Position numbers and translations under genes: made by a program. Of a DNA stretch of 41,350 bases, positions 557 to 26,552 are shown piece by piece (positions within the stretch are counted from its first letter, which is position 1; each line of letters starts with the position of its first letter). The stretch spans positions 1 to 41,350 of the IMG/VR virus record IMGVR_UViG_3300045988_014834. One strand, written 5' to 3'. Source of the stretch: a virus. Lineage: Duplodnaviria > Heunggongvirae > Uroviricota > Caudoviricetes. A model generated the notes under the pieces. It was given only the letters and a program-made list of their open reading frames with translations. It had not been told where the DNA came from and did no database searches.

Positions 557-664
557 TCTTTAATCCTTTGGTTAAGAGGTTACAGGTTAAGGGTAAATGC
601 GCCAGACGGGAACCACCCGCTTTTCGTGTGCGACACTAGGCGCAAACTTATTCTAGCACACTAC

Positions 665-693
665 TTGCACACCCCAATATAATAGGGTACTAT
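665..693 (+). promoter_or_regulatory. Early promoter: -35 TTGCAC, 17-nt spacer, -10 TACTAT
   Basis: Sequence TTGCACACCCCAATATAATAGGGTACTATTCAC, nearly identical copies at 8523 and (reverse) 20188-20216. Confidence 0.6.
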
Positions 694-723
694 TCACTCA
701 CACCAACAATGAAGGAGTTTAAA

Positions 724-915
724 ATGTCCAGTTTACCAGTTTCCTTAATTCTGTTTGCACTACTAGCTTATTTTGCACCTTTCCTGGTTGCGTACTTCCG
801 TAATCATAAGGCGAAGTTAGCTATATTCATGGCTAACCTGTTTCTTGGTTGGGCTCTGCTGCCGTGGGTCTTTATTTTAATCTGGGCGTGCAACTCGAAT
901 GTTAACGAGAAGTAA
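724..915 (+). CDS. Small two-helix membrane protein, superinfection-immunity-like (Imm family pattern), 63 aa
   Basis: AAGGAG 6 nt upstream of the ATG at 724; two hydrophobic helices; motif YF.P....YFRNH...LAIF.ANLFLGW...PW..ILIWA matches my recollection of the Imm_superinfect family. Confidence 0.55.
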   Translation: MSSLPVSLILFALLAYFAPFLVAYFRNHKAKLAIFMANLFLGWALLPWVFILIWACNSNVNEK

Positions 916-953
916 GCTAGTATAGGACAAATCCTAAACACGAGGACGTAAGA

Positions 954-2084
954 ATGGCCCAGAAGAAAATAACCGACGAACAGTTACAGGAAGAATTGAA
1001 CGCCGGGATGAAGAATATCGACATTGCCCGTAAATACGGCATCTCCGACCGCGTTATTCGTATTCGCAAAGCGAAGCTGGCTAAGAAAGGCGTAGGCCAC
1101 GGGCGTGACGTTAGCCATCTCGTGCCGGACGGCTACAAGATTAAAGGAACGTCATCCCTGGTGGACGAGTTCGGCAACACTAAGCTGCAATGGGTTAAGA
1201 CCGACACCGATGCGGAACGTCAGGTCGAGTTAATGAAGGCCGTAATCGAGGGCATGAAGTCAGAGATTACCCCTGTTGCGCCTGTTAAAGCGACTCGAGC
1301 CAAACGCGACGACAAGCTACTCAATCTTTACACTGTATCTGATTTCCATCTCGGTATGCTGGCATGGGCCGACGAGAGCGGCGACGACTGGGATATGAAG
1401 ATTGCAGAAGACCTGTTCTCCCGCTGGTTCGATGCCGCGTTTCAGAAAGCACCGGATGCTGGAACAGGGGTTATTAACCTGCTGGGCGACCTTGCACACT
1501 TTGATAGTCTGGATGCCGTTACCCCGGCGAGTGGTCATGTTCTTGACGCCGACACCCGTTACCAGAAACTTGTCCGCTACATGATTCGCATGGTCCGCCG
1601 TGTTGTAGATATGGCGCTCGTTAAGCATAAAAATGTTCGCTTGCTTATTGTGCAAGGGAACCACGACGAGAGTGGCATGATTTGGTTAGCTGAGATGTTC
1701 AGTACGCTGTACGACAATGAGCCTCGTGTGTTCGTCGATACGTCGCCGGATGTTTACAAGATGGTGCAACACGGCAAAACGACGTTGTTCTTTACACACG
1801 GGCATAAATGCCGGTTTGAGGTGGTCGAACCCATTATGATAGCTAAGTTCAGAAAAGCATTTGGCGAAAGCGAGTACAGTTATGCACATGTTGGGCATCT
1901 CCACCACCAAAAGATCGTAGAAAGCAGGAATATGGTAGTGGAGCAGCATCGCACTCTCGCGGCGAAAGATGCATATGCTTCTCGCGGCGGGTGGATGTCG
2001 GGCCGTAGTGCAAACGTAATTACTTATAGCGCCGAATATGGCGAGGTCGCACGTTTAACTATTTCACCGGAGATGCTGGGATGA
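954..2084 (+). CDS. HTH domain fused to a calcineurin-like metallophosphoesterase, 376 aa
   Basis: N-terminal HTH-like segment (NIDIARKYGISDRVIRIRKAK); ordered phosphoesterase motifs DFHLG, GDLAHFD, GNHDE, HGH, GHLHH. Confidence 0.6.
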   Translation: MAQKKITDEQLQEELNAGMKNIDIARKYGISDRVIRIRKAKLAKKGVGHGRDVSHLVPDGYKIKGTSSLVDEFGNTKLQWVKTDTDAERQVELMKAVIEGMKSEITPVAPVKATRAKRDDKLLNLYTVSDFHLGMLAWADESGDDWDMKIAEDLFSRWFDAAFQKAPDAGTGVINLLGDLAHFDSLDAVTPASGHVLDADTRYQKLVRYMIRMVRRVVDMALVKHKNVRLLIVQGNHDESGMIWLAEMFSTLYDNEPRVFVDTSPDVYKMVQHGKTTLFFTHGHKCRFEVVEPIMIAKFRKAFGESEYSYAHVGHLHHQKIVESRNMVVEQHRTLAAKDAYASRGGWMSGRSANVITYSAEYGEVARLTISPEMLG

Positions 2085-2311
2085 CTTCAAAATATGACCA
2101 TACACTCACCAACACCGCAGGCGATTCCATTACATGTGATGTTTATGATGTGCTAAGGGCCTTCGTTATCCACGACCCCGCGCTACAACACGCATTAAAG
2201 AAACTGCTATGCATGGGCGGCAGGGGGCATAAGGACGCGGATACAGACCTTAACGAAGCAATTGAAAGTCTGGAGAAGTTACGGGAGTACCGAAGTAATA
2301 TTGATGAGTAA
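2081..2311 (+). CDS. Hypothetical protein, 76 aa, coupled to the phosphoesterase gene
   Basis: ATGA stop/start overlap with the upstream gene; followed by a hairpin terminator. Confidence 0.45.
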   Translation: MTSKYDHTLTNTAGDSITCDVYDVLRAFVIHDPALQHALKKLLCMGGRGHKDADTDLNEAIESLEKLREYRSNIDE

Positions 2312-2340
2312 GAAAAAGGCCCCGAAAGGGGCCTTAGTTT
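2312..2340. terminator. Bidirectional intrinsic terminator (GGCCCC-GAAA-GGGGCC)
   Basis: Perfect GC hairpin flanked by an A-run and a T-run, between convergent genes. Confidence 0.7.
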
Positions 2341-3512
2341 TATGCGTAGGTTATACGCTGAATAACAATAGACGACTGGTACTGATTGCCTGTGGACTGT
2401 CCTTCTATGCTTTGGGTGATTGACTCAGGCCCGCCAATCTCTGGTGTAACCGCCGTAAGTTCCGCGCGTTTCAGGCTGAAAGACATAGCCCCGTTTACCC
2501 CCGCCAGAATAGAGTTAATCTCTACCTGCTGCTCGTTGATAAACTTCTGAATCATCGCCATGTCGTACAGTTTACCGGAGATGGAGAAGGTGTTAGCTGC
2601 ACGGCTACGCTCCACAAACGCTACGTTAGTGTTACCAAGTTCGAACTGTGCGGACGCGCTGTTATCGTTGGTGATGGTCAGACTGTCACAACGCAACGGC
2701 GTAGAGCCGTCGAACACGGAAACGTCAACCGAGGAGAATGGCTCGTCACCAAACGTAACAGAGGAGAAATCAGAACCTGTCGGCGGCTCGGTGAGAATCT
2801 CCTGGCTGCGCCCGATGAACGGGAAACTGCCCGTTACCATCGCATTAACGGCCTGCTCGACAGTGAAACCGGAAACTTCCACACCTTTAGTAAGCGTGTA
2901 CGCGTCAGCCCCGCCGCACTGCCCTTTGTACCAGGTGAGAATAGAGAACGTCTTGCACTGGCTTCCTGTTTCCAGTTTATCCCCTGTCTTAGCGGCGGTA
3001 GTTACTGTCTCAGTGGTAAGAGTATGTTGGATACCCGCACCTGTAACAACAGTTGCACTTACCTCGGTTACGATAAACGGTTTTGCGTTGTCGCCCGTTA
3101 AGTCGGTAAACGCAATCAGGTCGCCCACTTCAATGCCGTCGGTAATAAAGCTGCCATCAGCACGGGTGAACGTCTTGCCCGCCGGTGCGACGGTAATCGA
3201 CAGCCCGGACAGAAAAACACCGGATTGCCACGTAGAGCCTAACGCGCCCGCTAACCAGTCATCCTGGCTTTTCGAGCTAAGCTCAATAGCATATTCACCA
3301 CTAACCTGTTTGTTACCGGTGCGGATGGACGTAGTTTCACGGCTGCCATCCAGTTCGTTGGAGGTCAGCGTGTCACGGGTAATGGCAGGAACGCCACCTG
3401 TGTTACGCAGCGGCGACCATACCGGGTTACTTGGTGTTACGCCCGGGGTAACTTCCGCCACATAGAATTGCGCGGTATTCGCGCCCTTAAAAGGAGTTGT
3501 AGCCATATTCAC
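2340..3512 (-). CDS. Major tail (tube) protein, 390 aa
   Basis: Position between neck genes and tail chaperone; Thr/Ser/Gly-rich beta-type composition; terminator immediately downstream. Confidence 0.5.
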   Translation of the reverse strand: MNMATTPFKGANTAQFYVAEVTPGVTPSNPVWSPLRNTGGVPAITRDTLTSNELDGSRETTSIRTGNKQVSGEYAIELSSKSQDDWLAGALGSTWQSGVFLSGLSITVAPAGKTFTRADGSFITDGIEVGDLIAFTDLTGDNAKPFIVTEVSATVVTGAGIQHTLTTETVTTAAKTGDKLETGSQCKTFSILTWYKGQCGGADAYTLTKGVEVSGFTVEQAVNAMVTGSFPFIGRSQEILTEPPTGSDFSSVTFGDEPFSSVDVSVFDGSTPLRCDSLTITNDNSASAQFELGNTNVAFVERSRAANTFSISGKLYDMAMIQKFINEQQVEINSILAGVNGAMSFSLKRAELTAVTPEIGGPESITQSIEGQSTGNQYQSSIVIQRITYA

Positions 3513-7711: not shown

Positions 7712-7975
7712 CTATTCCAGAATATTCCTCACGTAATCCTGCAACATGAACACTTTCAGCCGCAGCTGCCGTACACATTCGGCGTTCTGAACGTCGATGG
7801 CTAAATCCTCGTCAGCGTCGCTACTTGGCATCGCCAGTTTGCACGGCGGCTGCATCATCGTCGTATCCGGAGATGGAATTGGCGTTTGCGACGGCGCGGG
7901 ACTTGAGTTGCACGCGCTCAGGGTCAAAAGTGCACACGCTGCGACCAGGCGTTTTGATGTACTTAACGACTTCAC
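7712..7975 (-). CDS. o-spanin (Rz1-like lipoprotein), 87 aa
   Basis: Signal peptide with lipobox LSAC, Pro-rich mature region, starts inside the upstream gene in a different frame. Confidence 0.5.
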   Translation of the reverse strand: MKSLSTSKRLVAACALLTLSACNSSPAPSQTPIPSPDTTMMQPPCKLAMPSSDADEDLAIDVQNAECVRQLRLKVFMLQDYVRNILE

Positions 7976-8207
7976 GGGTAATCACCTCTGATTTCGTCTT
8001 GCCTTCGTTGTCAGCGGCTGCGGCCTTTGATTCATCCTGCTGCTGCCGTTGTGTTTTCTTCGCTAACTCAGCCTGGGCTTTCTGCTGTTGCTGCGAAACG
8101 AGATTCGCCCGGCCTTCGCTCCAGCCGCTGCGGTACTGATAGATGCCGTGTGCGTAAGCCAGGATGATGAAACATGCTCCTGCTACGACAGTTGCTTTAA
8201 GATTCAT
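7821..8207 (-). CDS. i-spanin (Rz-like), 128 aa
   Basis: N-terminal transmembrane helix then charged Gln/Lys-rich region; embeds the lipoprotein ORF. Confidence 0.5.
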   Translation of the reverse strand: MNLKATVVAGACFIILAYAHGIYQYRSGWSEGRANLVSQQQQKAQAELAKKTQRQQQDESKAAAADNEGKTKSEVITREVVKYIKTPGRSVCTFDPERVQLKSRAVANANSISGYDDDAAAVQTGDAK

Positions 8208-8306
8208 GTTTCCCCTTTCTCGATAAGTAAAGCCCCGCCTTAAAGCGGGGCGCTAGTCCTTATCATTTAAACATAGAAACGGCGTAATCTCAGTAAACCA
8301 GTTACT

Positions 8307-8460
8307 TTTTACACAAGCAATAGAGTATGGCCCTTCCGAACGCGTCAGCGTAACTACACTCAGGACTTACGTCCCGCTCCGTTACCTGCCCGCGCCGCGG
8401 TCGCTTGTTCACACTTCACAAGCTCAGGAGGAGCTTAGCACACTTTTAGTGAAAAGTCAA
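8307..8460. repeat. Conserved ~150-bp noncoding element, copy A (second copy 20382-20525)
   Basis: About 75 percent identity to copy B with compensatory changes in a hairpin (GGAC-TTAC-GTCC here, GTGCC-TAAT-GGCAC in B). Confidence 0.6.
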
Positions 8461-8522: not shown

Positions 8523-8551
8523 TTGCACACCCCGATATAATAGGGTACTAT
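8523..8551 (+). promoter_or_regulatory. Early promoter copy (TTGCAC N17 TACTAT) driving the methyltransferase
   Basis: TTGCACACCCCGATATAATAGGGTACTATTCAG. Confidence 0.6.
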
Positions 8552-8579
8552 TCAGTTAACTTGAACAGCAGGAGTTAAA

Positions 8580-9308
8580 ATGTTTACTTTGAAACGTGGG
8601 GATTGTCTGGAGTTGATGCATGACGTACCAGATAAGAGTGTAGACCTTATTTTATGCGATTTACCTTATGGTACGACGCAAAACAAATGGGATACGGTAA
8701 TACCTTTCGATGCCCTATGGGGCCATTACATGCGTATTTCTCGCGGTGCTATTGTGCTAACAGCAGCGCAACCTTTCACTAGCGCGTTGATTATGAGTAA
8801 TGCTAAATTGTTCAAATACTCGTGGGTTTGGGATAAGGCAAATAGCACTGGATTCCTTAACGCTAAAAAGCAACCTTTACGCCGAACAGAGGACGTGGTT
8901 GTATTTTATGGCTCACAGCCAACCTATAACCCTCAAATGGAAGTTAGAGGTAAGCCCCGTAAGAAAGGTGGGTATATTAAAAAAGACGGCTCTGACAACT
9001 ATGGGTCTTTTAAAAGTGTAGAATCTGTTAGTAATGATTACTACCCCACCAATTTGATAGAAATATCTAATGCTAATAGGTCGGAAAAGTGCCACCCCAC
9101 CCAAAAACCAGTAGCGTTGATGGAATACCTGATTAAGACGTATACAAACGAAGGGGATACAGTTCTTGATAACTGTATGGGCAGCGGGACGACCGGAGTT
9201 GCGTGTGCGAACACAAACCGGAAGTTTATAGGCATGGAGTTAGACCGTGATTACTTCCGTATAGCCAGAAGACGCATATCTGAAGCATATAAAACTAAGG
9301 CCCCTTAA
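8580..9308 (+). CDS. Orphan DNA methyltransferase (N6-adenine/N4-cytosine beta-class), 242 aa
   Basis: Catalytic-motif region DLILCDLPYG followed later by the AdoMet motif HPTQKP...VLDNCMGSGTT; no restriction enzyme partner nearby. Confidence 0.85.
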   Translation: MFTLKRGDCLELMHDVPDKSVDLILCDLPYGTTQNKWDTVIPFDALWGHYMRISRGAIVLTAAQPFTSALIMSNAKLFKYSWVWDKANSTGFLNAKKQPLRRTEDVVVFYGSQPTYNPQMEVRGKPRKKGGYIKKDGSDNYGSFKSVESVSNDYYPTNLIEISNANRSEKCHPTQKPVALMEYLIKTYTNEGDTVLDNCMGSGTTGVACANTNRKFIGMELDRDYFRIARRRISEAYKTKAP

Positions 9309-9320
9309 GGGGCCTTTTAT
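9295..9320. terminator. Bidirectional hairpin terminator (AAGGCCCC-TTAA-GGGGCCTT)
   Basis: Perfect hairpin between convergent genes. Confidence 0.65.
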
Positions 9321-15710: not shown

Positions 15711-15739
15711 AATATAGTAGGGTCGAGGGTAATAGTCAA
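15711..15739 (-). promoter_or_regulatory. Near-consensus sigma70 promoter: TTGACT, 17 nt, TATATT
   Basis: Minus strand reads TTGACTattaccctcgaccctacTATATT. Confidence 0.6.
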
Positions 15740-15760
15740 CTAGTCATTGCAGAAAATAGA

Positions 15761-15858: not shown

Positions 15859-16347
15859 TCAACCTTTCACCGCGCGCCCAATAGCCTCAGCCTCCCGCCA
15901 CGGTTTACCGTCGAATAGTGCAAGACGTCCCGCGGTACGGCGACGCAGGCCGAGTAATGGTTTGCCGTTCTGGTTGATGAACAGCGCCAGCTTAGCCCGC
16001 AGCGTCGAGATATCGCCGGAACGCAGCGCCTTACCTGTGCCAGTAGTAGCGGCAATCACACCAGCACCTGCGTTGTATACCAGGTCACACACTGCGTCGA
16101 ACTGCGCCTGGGTCAGTGAATGGTGTGCTGCTGCATCAACCGCAACTACAGCCTTAGCCATATCACGATTCAGTAACAGGAGGCCTTGCCCCTTCGTAAT
16201 CTTCTGCCCTTCGTACACATGAGGGCCATAGCTTCCGTAGCCTATGGTTAAGTATTTTTCCGAAGGTGTCGCGCGGTATGCGGTCCCGCGGAATCCCTCG
16301 AACGCAGCGGTAAAATGCAATCCATTATCTGAAATGTTTCGAGACAC
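15859..16347 (-). CDS. Endolysin (GH24 lysozyme, T4 E / P22 gp19-like), 162 aa
   Basis: Catalytic region FEGFRGTAY...TIGYG and conserved C-terminal motifs; adjacent to holin-like genes. Confidence 0.85.
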   Translation of the reverse strand: MSRNISDNGLHFTAAFEGFRGTAYRATPSEKYLTIGYGSYGPHVYEGQKITKGQGLLLLNRDMAKAVVAVDAAAHHSLTQAQFDAVCDLVYNAGAGVIAATTGTGKALRSGDISTLRAKLALFINQNGKPLLGLRRRTAGRLALFDGKPWREAEAIGRAVKG

Positions 16348-18276: not shown

Positions 18277-18307
18277 ATTCTGTCTCTCCTCTCGTTCGTG
18301 TAAATGA

Positions 18308-18336
18308 ATAGTAGCCTATTCTATCTTAGCGTGCAA
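18308..18336 (-). promoter_or_regulatory. Promoter TTGCAC, 17 nt, TACTAT (early-type, divergent spacer)
   Basis: Minus strand TTGCACgctaagatagaataggcTACTATTCA. Confidence 0.5.
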
Positions 18337-20153: not shown

Positions 20154-20187
20154 TTCTGAATTCCTTATGTCTCGTTCCGATAAGTGA

Positions 20188-20216
20188 ATAGTATACTATT
20201 ATGTTGGGGTGTGCAA
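20188..20216 (-). promoter_or_regulatory. Early promoter copy (TTGCAC N17 TACTAT) for the leftward early operon
   Basis: Minus strand TTGCACACCCCAACATAATAGTATACTATTCAC. Confidence 0.6.
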
Positions 20217-23855: not shown

Positions 23856-23919
23856 GTCAATTACTCCTTAGTCAGTTGATATGTGAATAGTACCATATTA
23901 ATTATTTTAGAAAAGCCCA

Positions 23920-23948
23920 TTGACAAGTGAATAGCTCGCTATTATAGT
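23920..23948 (+). promoter_or_regulatory. Middle promoter TTGACA, 17 nt, TATAGT with embedded palindrome AATAG-N4-CTATT (23930-23943)
   Basis: ttgacaagtgAATAGctcgCTATTatagtt. Confidence 0.55.
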
Positions 23949-26522: not shown

Positions 26523-26552
26523 TTGACAACCTGAATAGTTAGCTATTATAGT
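26523..26552 (+). promoter_or_regulatory. Middle promoter TTGACA ... TATAGT with palindrome AATAG-N4-CTATT (26534-26547)
   Basis: ttgacaacctgAATAGttagCTATTatagtt. Confidence 0.5.

Follow-up and report, generated by a model that had tools for sequence, protein, structure and literature searches.

Morons, as defined from the lambdoid phages HK97 and HK022, are inserts within a late operon whose transcription does not depend on that operon, and Imm of phage T4, a protein of about 83 amino acids (aa), blocks DNA entry of superinfecting phages. Among the Guernseyvirinae, phages Bas74, P AB-2017, Ent1 and Jersey carry the same genes in the same order and orientation between the tail tube and the tail assembly chaperone gene as the locus considered here, and in Bas74, with an identical three-gene layout, the imm record is already annotated as 'moron'. 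The locus corresponds to positions 665-2340 of a viral DNA of 41,350 nucleotides (nt) (IMG/VR record IMGVR_UViG_3300045988_014834, in the following termed the window), which derives from a Kagunavirus-like E. coli phage of the Guernseyvirinae. With a probability of roughly 70%, we interpret 665-2340 as a self-contained transcription unit, oriented against the tail genes and occupying a cargo dock between the tube and chaperone genes, in which a moron-like imm gene is combined with a relocated phosphoesterase gene of the T1 supergroup.

The three plus-strand open reading frames (ORFs; 724-915, 954-2084 and 2081-2311) are present exactly as placed by a preliminary description of the sequence. 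In agreement with the latter, they are enclosed by two minus-strand tail genes identified via Pfam, the tail assembly chaperone gene at 140-556 (Phage_TAC_4, 7e-6; annotated likewise in relatives) and the gene for the tail tube or major tail protein at 2340-3512 (Phage_tube_2, 3e-35), the true start of the latter likely being the ATG at 3506, as relatives annotate genes of 1167 nt. While the tube gene is the last of the proximal late operon, the chaperone gene is the first of the distal tail operon, which continues with tape measure, minor tail proteins, a J-like fibre and the tailspike and runs on across the window ends. The first cassette gene, imm (724-915), encodes a 63-aa protein of the T4 Imm superinfection-immunity family, its ATG being preceded by GAAGGAG at a distance of 6 nt. 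It is followed by the gene for a 376-aa metallophosphoesterase with a helix-turn-helix domain (954-2084) and by the gene for a conserved 76-aa protein (2081-2311), the start of which overlaps the phosphoesterase stop codon (ATGA), so that both can be read as translationally coupled members of one operon. The base composition differs between the genes, with GC values of 42.2% for imm, 51.2% for the phosphoesterase gene and 46.3% for the 76-aa ORF at a genome value of 51.0%. Hence, the AT-richness of the first gene that had been noticed by eye is real, placing imm within the lowest 5.6% of the genome's 192-nt windows.

Transcription of the cassette is predicted to start at TTGCAC-17-TACTAT (665-693, plus strand), and this 29-mer is one of three near-identical copies, recurring at 8523-8551 (plus strand, one mismatch) and at 20188-20216 (minus strand, three mismatches) with zero occurrences expected by chance. 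Its 18-nt core is matched eight times in the window compared to an expectation of 0.16, and the cassette promoter is conserved in Kagunavirus and Jerseyvirus relatives. It is this repetition and conservation, not consensus strength, from which promoter status is deduced. The same promoter class also heads a leftward block of small ORFs (20188, 18305), and a variant bearing TTGACA as -35 element heads replication genes (23928, 26532), a placement that fits host-polymerase promoters of the early or middle type. The palindrome AATAG-N4-CTATT (680-693) overlaps the -10 element of the cassette promoter and likewise the -10 of every repeated-promoter copy, its orientation with respect to the driven gene being variable. 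Copies of the palindrome and promoter core are located at 679-696, 8537-8554, 18305-18322, 20185-20202, 23884-23901, 23928-23945 and 26532-26549, in addition to a weak match at 15729-15746. As the palindrome covers the -10 element in all copies, a regulator is suggested, and the palindrome looks like a putative operator. The same repeated motif was found with PHIRE in phage fBC-Eco01 (PMC9825357) and interpreted there as the promoter used by a 'phage-encoded RNA polymerase'. Among the ORFs annotated in the window, an RNA polymerase was not found.

At its other end, the cassette is bordered by a two-way terminator, the hairpin AAGGCCCC-GAAA-GGGGCCTT, common to the cassette and the tail tube gene. 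This element (AAGGCCCCGAAAGGGGCCTT, 2316-2335) is recognized as terminator-like in both directions, consists of a GC-rich stem with T runs on both strands and is located 4 nt from each of the converging stop codons. Thus, the unit does possess its own predicted promoter and a bidirectional hairpin terminator, as had been proposed. The stem AAGGCCCC/GGGGCCTT, with differing loops of 4 nt, marks every convergent junction of the genome (2316, 9297, 32829 and, as a variant, 27254), and the same hairpin is found at the same three junctions in phage VSiP of another genus, Cornellvirus, including an identical copy after the tube gene. The promoter and the hairpin being repeated across the genome, both have to be regarded as standard parts of the phage itself and not as imported signals. 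In line with this, the same parts delimit a second counter-oriented island within the head module (8523-9316, plus strand), in which the promoter copy at 8523-8551 is followed by a gene for a Dam-like DNA methyltransferase (8580-9308) and the hairpin at 9297-9316. In VSiP, the head-module island holds, instead of the methyltransferase, a phosphoesterase 83% identical to that of the window, and two unrelated genes are found in the dock between tube and chaperone. A further motif, AGTGTGCTA(G/A)A, was considered as a late promoter common to both islands and rejected, since its count is not above chance, though the two best matches do adjoin the islands.

For assessing the variability of the junction, 80 related loci were fetched via the chaperone protein, and the interval between tube and chaperone genes was measured in the 73 loci showing both flanks. 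The phosphoesterase cassette is present in 46 of these, 32 with imm and 14 with another gene in the first position (slot 1), and a further 22 loci bear other counter-oriented cargo without the phosphoesterase. In the remaining five, there is no cargo and tube and chaperone genes are only 94-185 bp apart; the tube proteins of these cassette-less phages are 66-69% identical to that of the window and are thus as diverged as those of Jerseyviruses. In a distant Vibrio relative, the tail operon is contiguous as well. Hence, the comparison of relatives that had been proposed as a check of the preliminary description speaks for insertion at this site. The cargo itself is swapped, as slot 1 is occupied by four unrelated families, namely Imm, a lipoprotein-like family (phrog_14165, also gene 25 of Jersey), a secreted 120-aa protein and a membrane protein with a single helix. 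All of these are envelope proteins, which fits superinfection exclusion, one of the functions that had been suspected at the outset. Presence or absence of an insert together with swapping of cargo at one junction is what comparison of relatives would show for an exclusion slot of the moron type. Besides slot 1, Guernseyvirinae relatives differ from the window in adding or swapping an HNH endonuclease, a PNKP-type phosphatase plus kinase or an Ant-like DNA-binding protein. The 2-kb cassette region as a whole matches 440 phage records, nearly all from Escherichia and Salmonella Guernseyvirinae (Kagunavirus, Jerseyvirus). A minimal form of the dock is seen in six IMG/VR loci (L034 and L047-L051), where a single small counter-oriented gene for a membrane protein (phrog_5031) is present and the 320 nt next to the chaperone gene showed no int-alpA-like RNA element (see below).

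Compared to the morons of lambdoid phages, the unit shares the location between genes that are direct neighbors in relatives, the possession of its own predicted promoter and terminator and hence a presumed transcription separate from that of the late operon around it, one compositionally atypical gene and a slot 1 encoding envelope proteins of the exclusion type. It differs in that the phage is virulent, excluding expression in a prophage state, in that its signals are the phage's own repeated parts and its largest gene is a conserved supergroup gene of typical GC content, and in that the insert is counter-oriented, so that the tail genes downstream would have to be restarted from a promoter of their own. 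Consequently, the label 'classic moron' given in the preliminary description holds for the junction, which is variable among relatives, and does not hold for the phosphoesterase gene, which is not accessory, nor for promoter and terminator, which are not foreign. One might go further and regard the unit as no moron at all, that is, as ordinary early or middle genes forming an ancestral block that genome rearrangement moved into the tail module, with the variable neighbours reflecting ordinary mosaicism. In favor of this are the genome-typical GC content of the phosphoesterase gene and its near-universal occurrence in T1-like phages, the use of standard parts for transcription signals and the counting of imm as a core gene in Jerseyvirus papers. 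Nevertheless, such a block is an unlikely explanation in view of the five relatives lacking the insert and the 22 with unrelated cargo at the identical junction and with the same promoter geometry, of the four unrelated envelope-protein families alternating in slot 1 and of the AT-rich imm. Moreover, the phosphoesterases of the Jerseyviruses Ent1 and Jersey are 55 and 87% identical to that of the window, respectively, whereas their tube proteins both stay at 67-68%. Identity of the phosphoesterase is hence decoupled from that of the tube, pointing to a recombination history of the cassette separate from its flanks.

Assignment of the imm product is supported by Pfam Imm_superinfect (PF14373; 3.9e-13, 49.5 bits compared to a cut-off of 27.9) and by phrog_1039, 'immunity to superinfection' (3e-22). 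From the translation, two hydrophobic stretches can be read, at about residues 5-25 and 32-56, which are separated by RNHKAK. The cargo had been described as a membrane protein resembling immunity proteins, and both the family match and the hydrophobic stretches bear this out. Like T4 Imm, to which its family match is clear, the window protein is a small protein of the inner membrane with a pair of hydrophobic helices; it differs in its length of only 63 aa and in belonging to a siphovirus with another DNA-delivery route. A partner protein like Sp, of the type accompanying T4 Imm, was not identified in the window. By analogy, the product of imm, the moron-like part of the cassette, most likely blocks the entry of DNA from superinfecting phages. 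A role in lysis timing or membrane physiology instead of phage exclusion is very improbable. It would suit a very small membrane protein with two helices, the authors of the study on Kagunavirus K1B4 tie imm to lysis (PMC12645636), and virulent phages profit less from classical immunity. Against it, both Pfam and PHROG place the product in the T4 Imm family, and genes for lysis are located elsewhere (endolysin at 15859-16347, spanins at 7712-8207). Furthermore, the lipoprotein or periplasmic cargo found alternatively in slot 1 resembles known exclusion proteins such as Llp of T5 and Cor of phi80.

The 376-aa protein belongs to phrog_704 (8e-167) and can be divided into an N-terminal helix-turn-helix domain (residues 8-44), a linker of beta-hairpin and helix (61-104) and a dinuclear metallophosphoesterase core (119-376). 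The metal-binding motifs D130-x-H132, G178-D179, G235-N236-H237-D238, H282 and G314-H315-x-H317 show little or no variation among 49 homologues. As a search for close homologues gave only sequences of at least 95% identity, a library clustered at 50% identity was used for obtaining these. With the resulting 49-sequence alignment, an AlphaFold model with a predicted local distance difference test value (pLDDT) of 91.5 was established, whereas the single-sequence model only reached a pLDDT of 39 and was discarded. By modeled fold and motifs, the protein is a member of the calcineurin-like metallophosphoesterase superfamily despite Pfam scores below threshold. In line with this, the earlier assignment as a DNA-binding phosphoesterase agrees with both the N-terminal helix-turn-helix and the intact metallophosphoesterase motifs. 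The nearest folds of the model are DNA nucleases (Mre11/SbcD and DP1 of PolD), at a sequence identity of only 12-17%, and a sequence search of the PDB gave no match. In contrast to Mre11/SbcD and DP1, the window protein has a unique N-terminal helix-turn-helix with beta-hairpin linker; in contrast to Mre11/SbcD, a match to the Mre11 capping domain was not seen in the protein and its gene neighbors are imm and the 76-aa ORF instead of Rad50/SbcC.

Homologues of the phosphoesterase are found in 2040 phage records and in 4681 clusters at 50% identity, among them those of T1 (45% identical), Dhillonvirus (74%), T1-like Klebsiella phages and phages of Vibrio and Rhodobacter. Its position is outside the tail module, near lysis or methylase genes, in T1, Dhillonvirus and a Vibrio phage. 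Genome-typical GC content, the occurrence in 2040 records and these other positions in relatives show that the phosphoesterase is not accessory cargo. In relatives, either an HNH endonuclease gene or genes for a PNKP-type phosphatase and a P-loop kinase are found directly behind it, which argues for processing of nucleic-acid ends rather than for host manipulation. Accepting the modeled fold, the enzyme most likely trims or processes nucleic-acid ends in phage DNA metabolism. For an anti-defense or host-manipulation role of the phosphoesterase, as previously considered for the cargo, there is no direct support, the nearest folds being DNA nucleases and PADLOC giving zero matches. An anti-defense unit, improbable as it is, can be envisaged in two variants. 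In the one, the phosphoesterase would destroy cyclic (oligo)nucleotide signals of immunity; in the other, it would act together with the PNKP-type phosphatase and kinase of relatives in healing RNA or DNA ends cut by host defense nucleases such as anticodon nucleases. The DNA nucleases as best structural neighbors, the N-terminal DNA-binding domain, unexpected in a small-molecule phosphodiesterase, and the missing PADLOC model match all argue against an anti-defense unit. In addition, wide conservation and relocation across T1-like phages suit a housekeeping role better, and Kagunavirus isolates of the BASEL collection are highly sensitive to restriction-modification and variably so to Old (PMC11990801).

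The 76-aa protein encoded last in the cassette is assigned to phrog_2452 (4.5e-33) and is 76-84% identical in Bas74, K-01, Ent1 and Jersey, while matches in Pfam, NCBIfam or PADLOC were not obtained. Also for the cassette proteins in general, the NCBIfam and PADLOC scans gave nothing useful. Based on end-alignments in PHROG, the 76-aa ORF was considered as a C-terminal remnant of the 'ATPase' of P AB-2017, which was rejected after direct BLASTP comparison (E 0.73).

On the chaperone side, the cassette promoter adjoins a structured RNA (582-646, minus strand), an outer stem around two hairpins, which forms the chaperone leader and resembles the Rfam family int-alpA (RF02996). Its score of 32.4 bits is below the gathering value of 35.8 (E 4e-5 on 321 nt and 0.005 on the whole window), whereas the homologous site in vB_Eco_K-01 reaches 36.6 bits and is thus above gathering. 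In an alignment of 35 diverse sequences, 82% of the cells are paired and compensatory changes are seen in 13 of the 17 pairs; the covariation of 0.388 exceeds the values of 0.138 for shuffled alignments (0/500) and of at most 0.117 for slid controls. Moreover, G-U pairs fit the chaperone-sense strand, and between genera, conservation of the intergenic region 557-664 far exceeds that of the chaperone protein encoded downstream. In common with RF02996, the window RNA matches the full model and shows the outer stem with two hairpins, the conserved UAG and GAAAAG and the CGGG/CCCG hairpin. It deviates in being 3.4 bits below gathering, in mismatches at the first two outer-stem pairs, in lacking the U-rich tail of the consensus and in its context, the leader of a tail chaperone gene and not integrase or alpA genes. 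Most cassette-less phages likewise possess the int-alpA-like RNA, there as an intercistronic element between tube and chaperone genes. Therefore, the RNA predates the cargo, which was inserted between the tube stop codon and the RNA. A search of E. coli genomes for int-alpA-like elements gave no match, and a strict pattern scan of viral contigs for the RNA element resulted in only two matches, one of them uninterpretable and residing in an unrelated contig of high GC content. In a high-GC viral contig (L092; 554-597, plus strand), an element of the int-alpA type is flanked by a putative regulator gene on one side and by a block with a tape-measure-like gene on the other, which hints at an RNA link to tail operons beyond this phage group.

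Directly upstream of the RNA, an extended -10 element directed toward the chaperone gene, TGcTAGAAT (650-658, minus strand), can be predicted by reading the sequence, with a predicted transcription start at about 643-644 that coincides with the 5' end of the outer stem. Relative to the chaperone ATG, TAGAAT or TATTCT is located at -95 to -99 in almost every relative with a cassette, and it is missing from those lacking one. Cassette promoter and chaperone-directed promoter keep fixed distances whatever the cargo, both are absent in cargo-less loci, and in the window the -35 regions of these two divergent predicted promoters lie within about 10 nt. From this, we infer that the distal tail operon restarts at a promoter back to back with that of the cassette, its transcript beginning with the RNA. 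A more ambitious and decidedly tentative proposal, which we consider rather doubtful, is that the junction represents a dedicated dock and regulatory device made up of back-to-back promoters, a palindromic operator, a two-way terminator and the int-alpA-class RNA as required cis-acting leader of the distal tail operon of about 9 kb, promoter occupancy coupling or alternating the expression of exclusion and tail genes. In such a device, the RNA may act as 5' stabilizer, processing site or put-like antitermination element.

Several points weigh against the interpretation of 665-2340 given above. A Jerseyvirus paper calls the role of imm unknown (PMC8425127). The phosphoesterase is just under the Pfam gathering values (25.2 versus 27 for Metallophos_2 and 19.6 versus 21.5 for Metallophos), and a partner like SbcC or Rad50 was not matched among the ORFs of at least 400 aa, which have other functions or belong to the structural and packaging block. 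The cassette promoter agrees with the sigma-70 consensus at only seven of twelve positions and was missed by a generic promoter scan, and the palindrome at its -10 element suggests regulation by some factor. Finally, the authors of the K1B4 study class imm as late and not as early, in a class that includes DNA polymerase. By RNA-seq of this phage, closely related according to its authors' phylogeny, imm and an N-methyltransferase gene were assigned, together with DNA polymerase, to the class peaking latest (>100 min), and capsid and tail genes to a middle class (PMC12645636). These peaks have to be read with sampling extending to 120 min, past the first burst at a latent period of 30 min, and with phage reads of at most 8.9% (PMC12645636). 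Owing to this poor synchronization, we limit the conclusion from K1B4 to an uncoupling of imm from the structural genes.

The early timing given to the cassette promoter in the preliminary description might accordingly be questioned. Instead of being early, it could be controlled via the palindrome and show continuous or increasing expression, possibly forming a switch with the overlapping chaperone-directed promoter. The presence of AATAG-N4-CTATT at all eight motif copies, the proximity of the two -35 regions and the latest peak of the K1B4 genes for imm and N-methyltransferase, which share a promoter type in the window, are compatible with this. On the other hand, the same promoter heads the leftward small-ORF block (20188), which resembles an early region, and the 'late' class of K1B4 includes DNA polymerase and derives from an unsynchronized infection with few phage reads, so that we regard a non-early promoter as possible, albeit somewhat unlikely.

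With respect to the genome setting, the window appears to represent a whole genome of about 41 kb in circularly permuted form. Its minus strand bears the genes for packaging, head, tail and lysis, its plus strand the replication block with helicase-primase, exonuclease, a Gp2.5-like single-stranded DNA-binding protein, DNA polymerase and helicase. Within the spanin region (minus strand), an 87-aa lipoprotein-like ORF with LSAC at the end of the signal peptide (7712-7975) overlaps, in another frame, the 3' part of the gene for a 128-aa membrane protein (7821-8207), extending about 110 nt beyond the end of the latter, an arrangement resembling an overlapping Rz/Rz1 spanin pair. The spanin genes are preceded by a leader of about 200 nt (8208-8440, minus strand), which shows just upstream of the gene start a strong terminator-like hairpin (8232-8251; GCCCCGC-TTTAAG-GCGGGGC, then TTT) and resembles a promoter-leader-terminator layout that would need antitermination.

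Combining these data, expression of the locus may be envisaged as follows. Host RNA polymerase would start at the phage's standard promoter TTGCAC-17-TACTAT, transcribe all three cassette genes as one operon and stop at the two-way hairpin, which would also end the opposing tube transcript. As the cassette splits the tail operon, chaperone, tape measure, tip and tailspike genes would restart from TGcTAGAAT, which lies within a few bases of the cassette promoter, giving a distal tail transcript that begins with the conserved int-alpA-like RNA. In slot 1, imm would, like its T4 counterpart, keep the DNA of superinfecting phages from entering, and slot 2 would be a parking position for the DNA-binding, Mre11/SbcD/DP1-like metallophosphoesterase widespread in the T1 supergroup, presumably processing nucleic-acid ends.

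The cassette is real and mostly ordinary, being already annotated in hundreds of Guernseyvirinae genomes, while an analysis of the junction as hotspot, the back-to-back promoter geometry or an int-alpA-like leader was not found in the literature searched. For small, engineerable phages of E. coli and Salmonella, the junction represents a precise and reusable insertion site at which natural cargo swaps spare tail assembly, which is of interest for phage engineering. The label 'DNA repair exonuclease' covers a very widespread, uncharacterized helix-turn-helix metallophosphoesterase of T1-like phages worth biochemical study. Furthermore, a well-supported structured RNA is now placed at the head of the distal tail operon and, if the junction indeed functions as regulatory device, this would be the first functional context for the orphan int-alpA RNA family.

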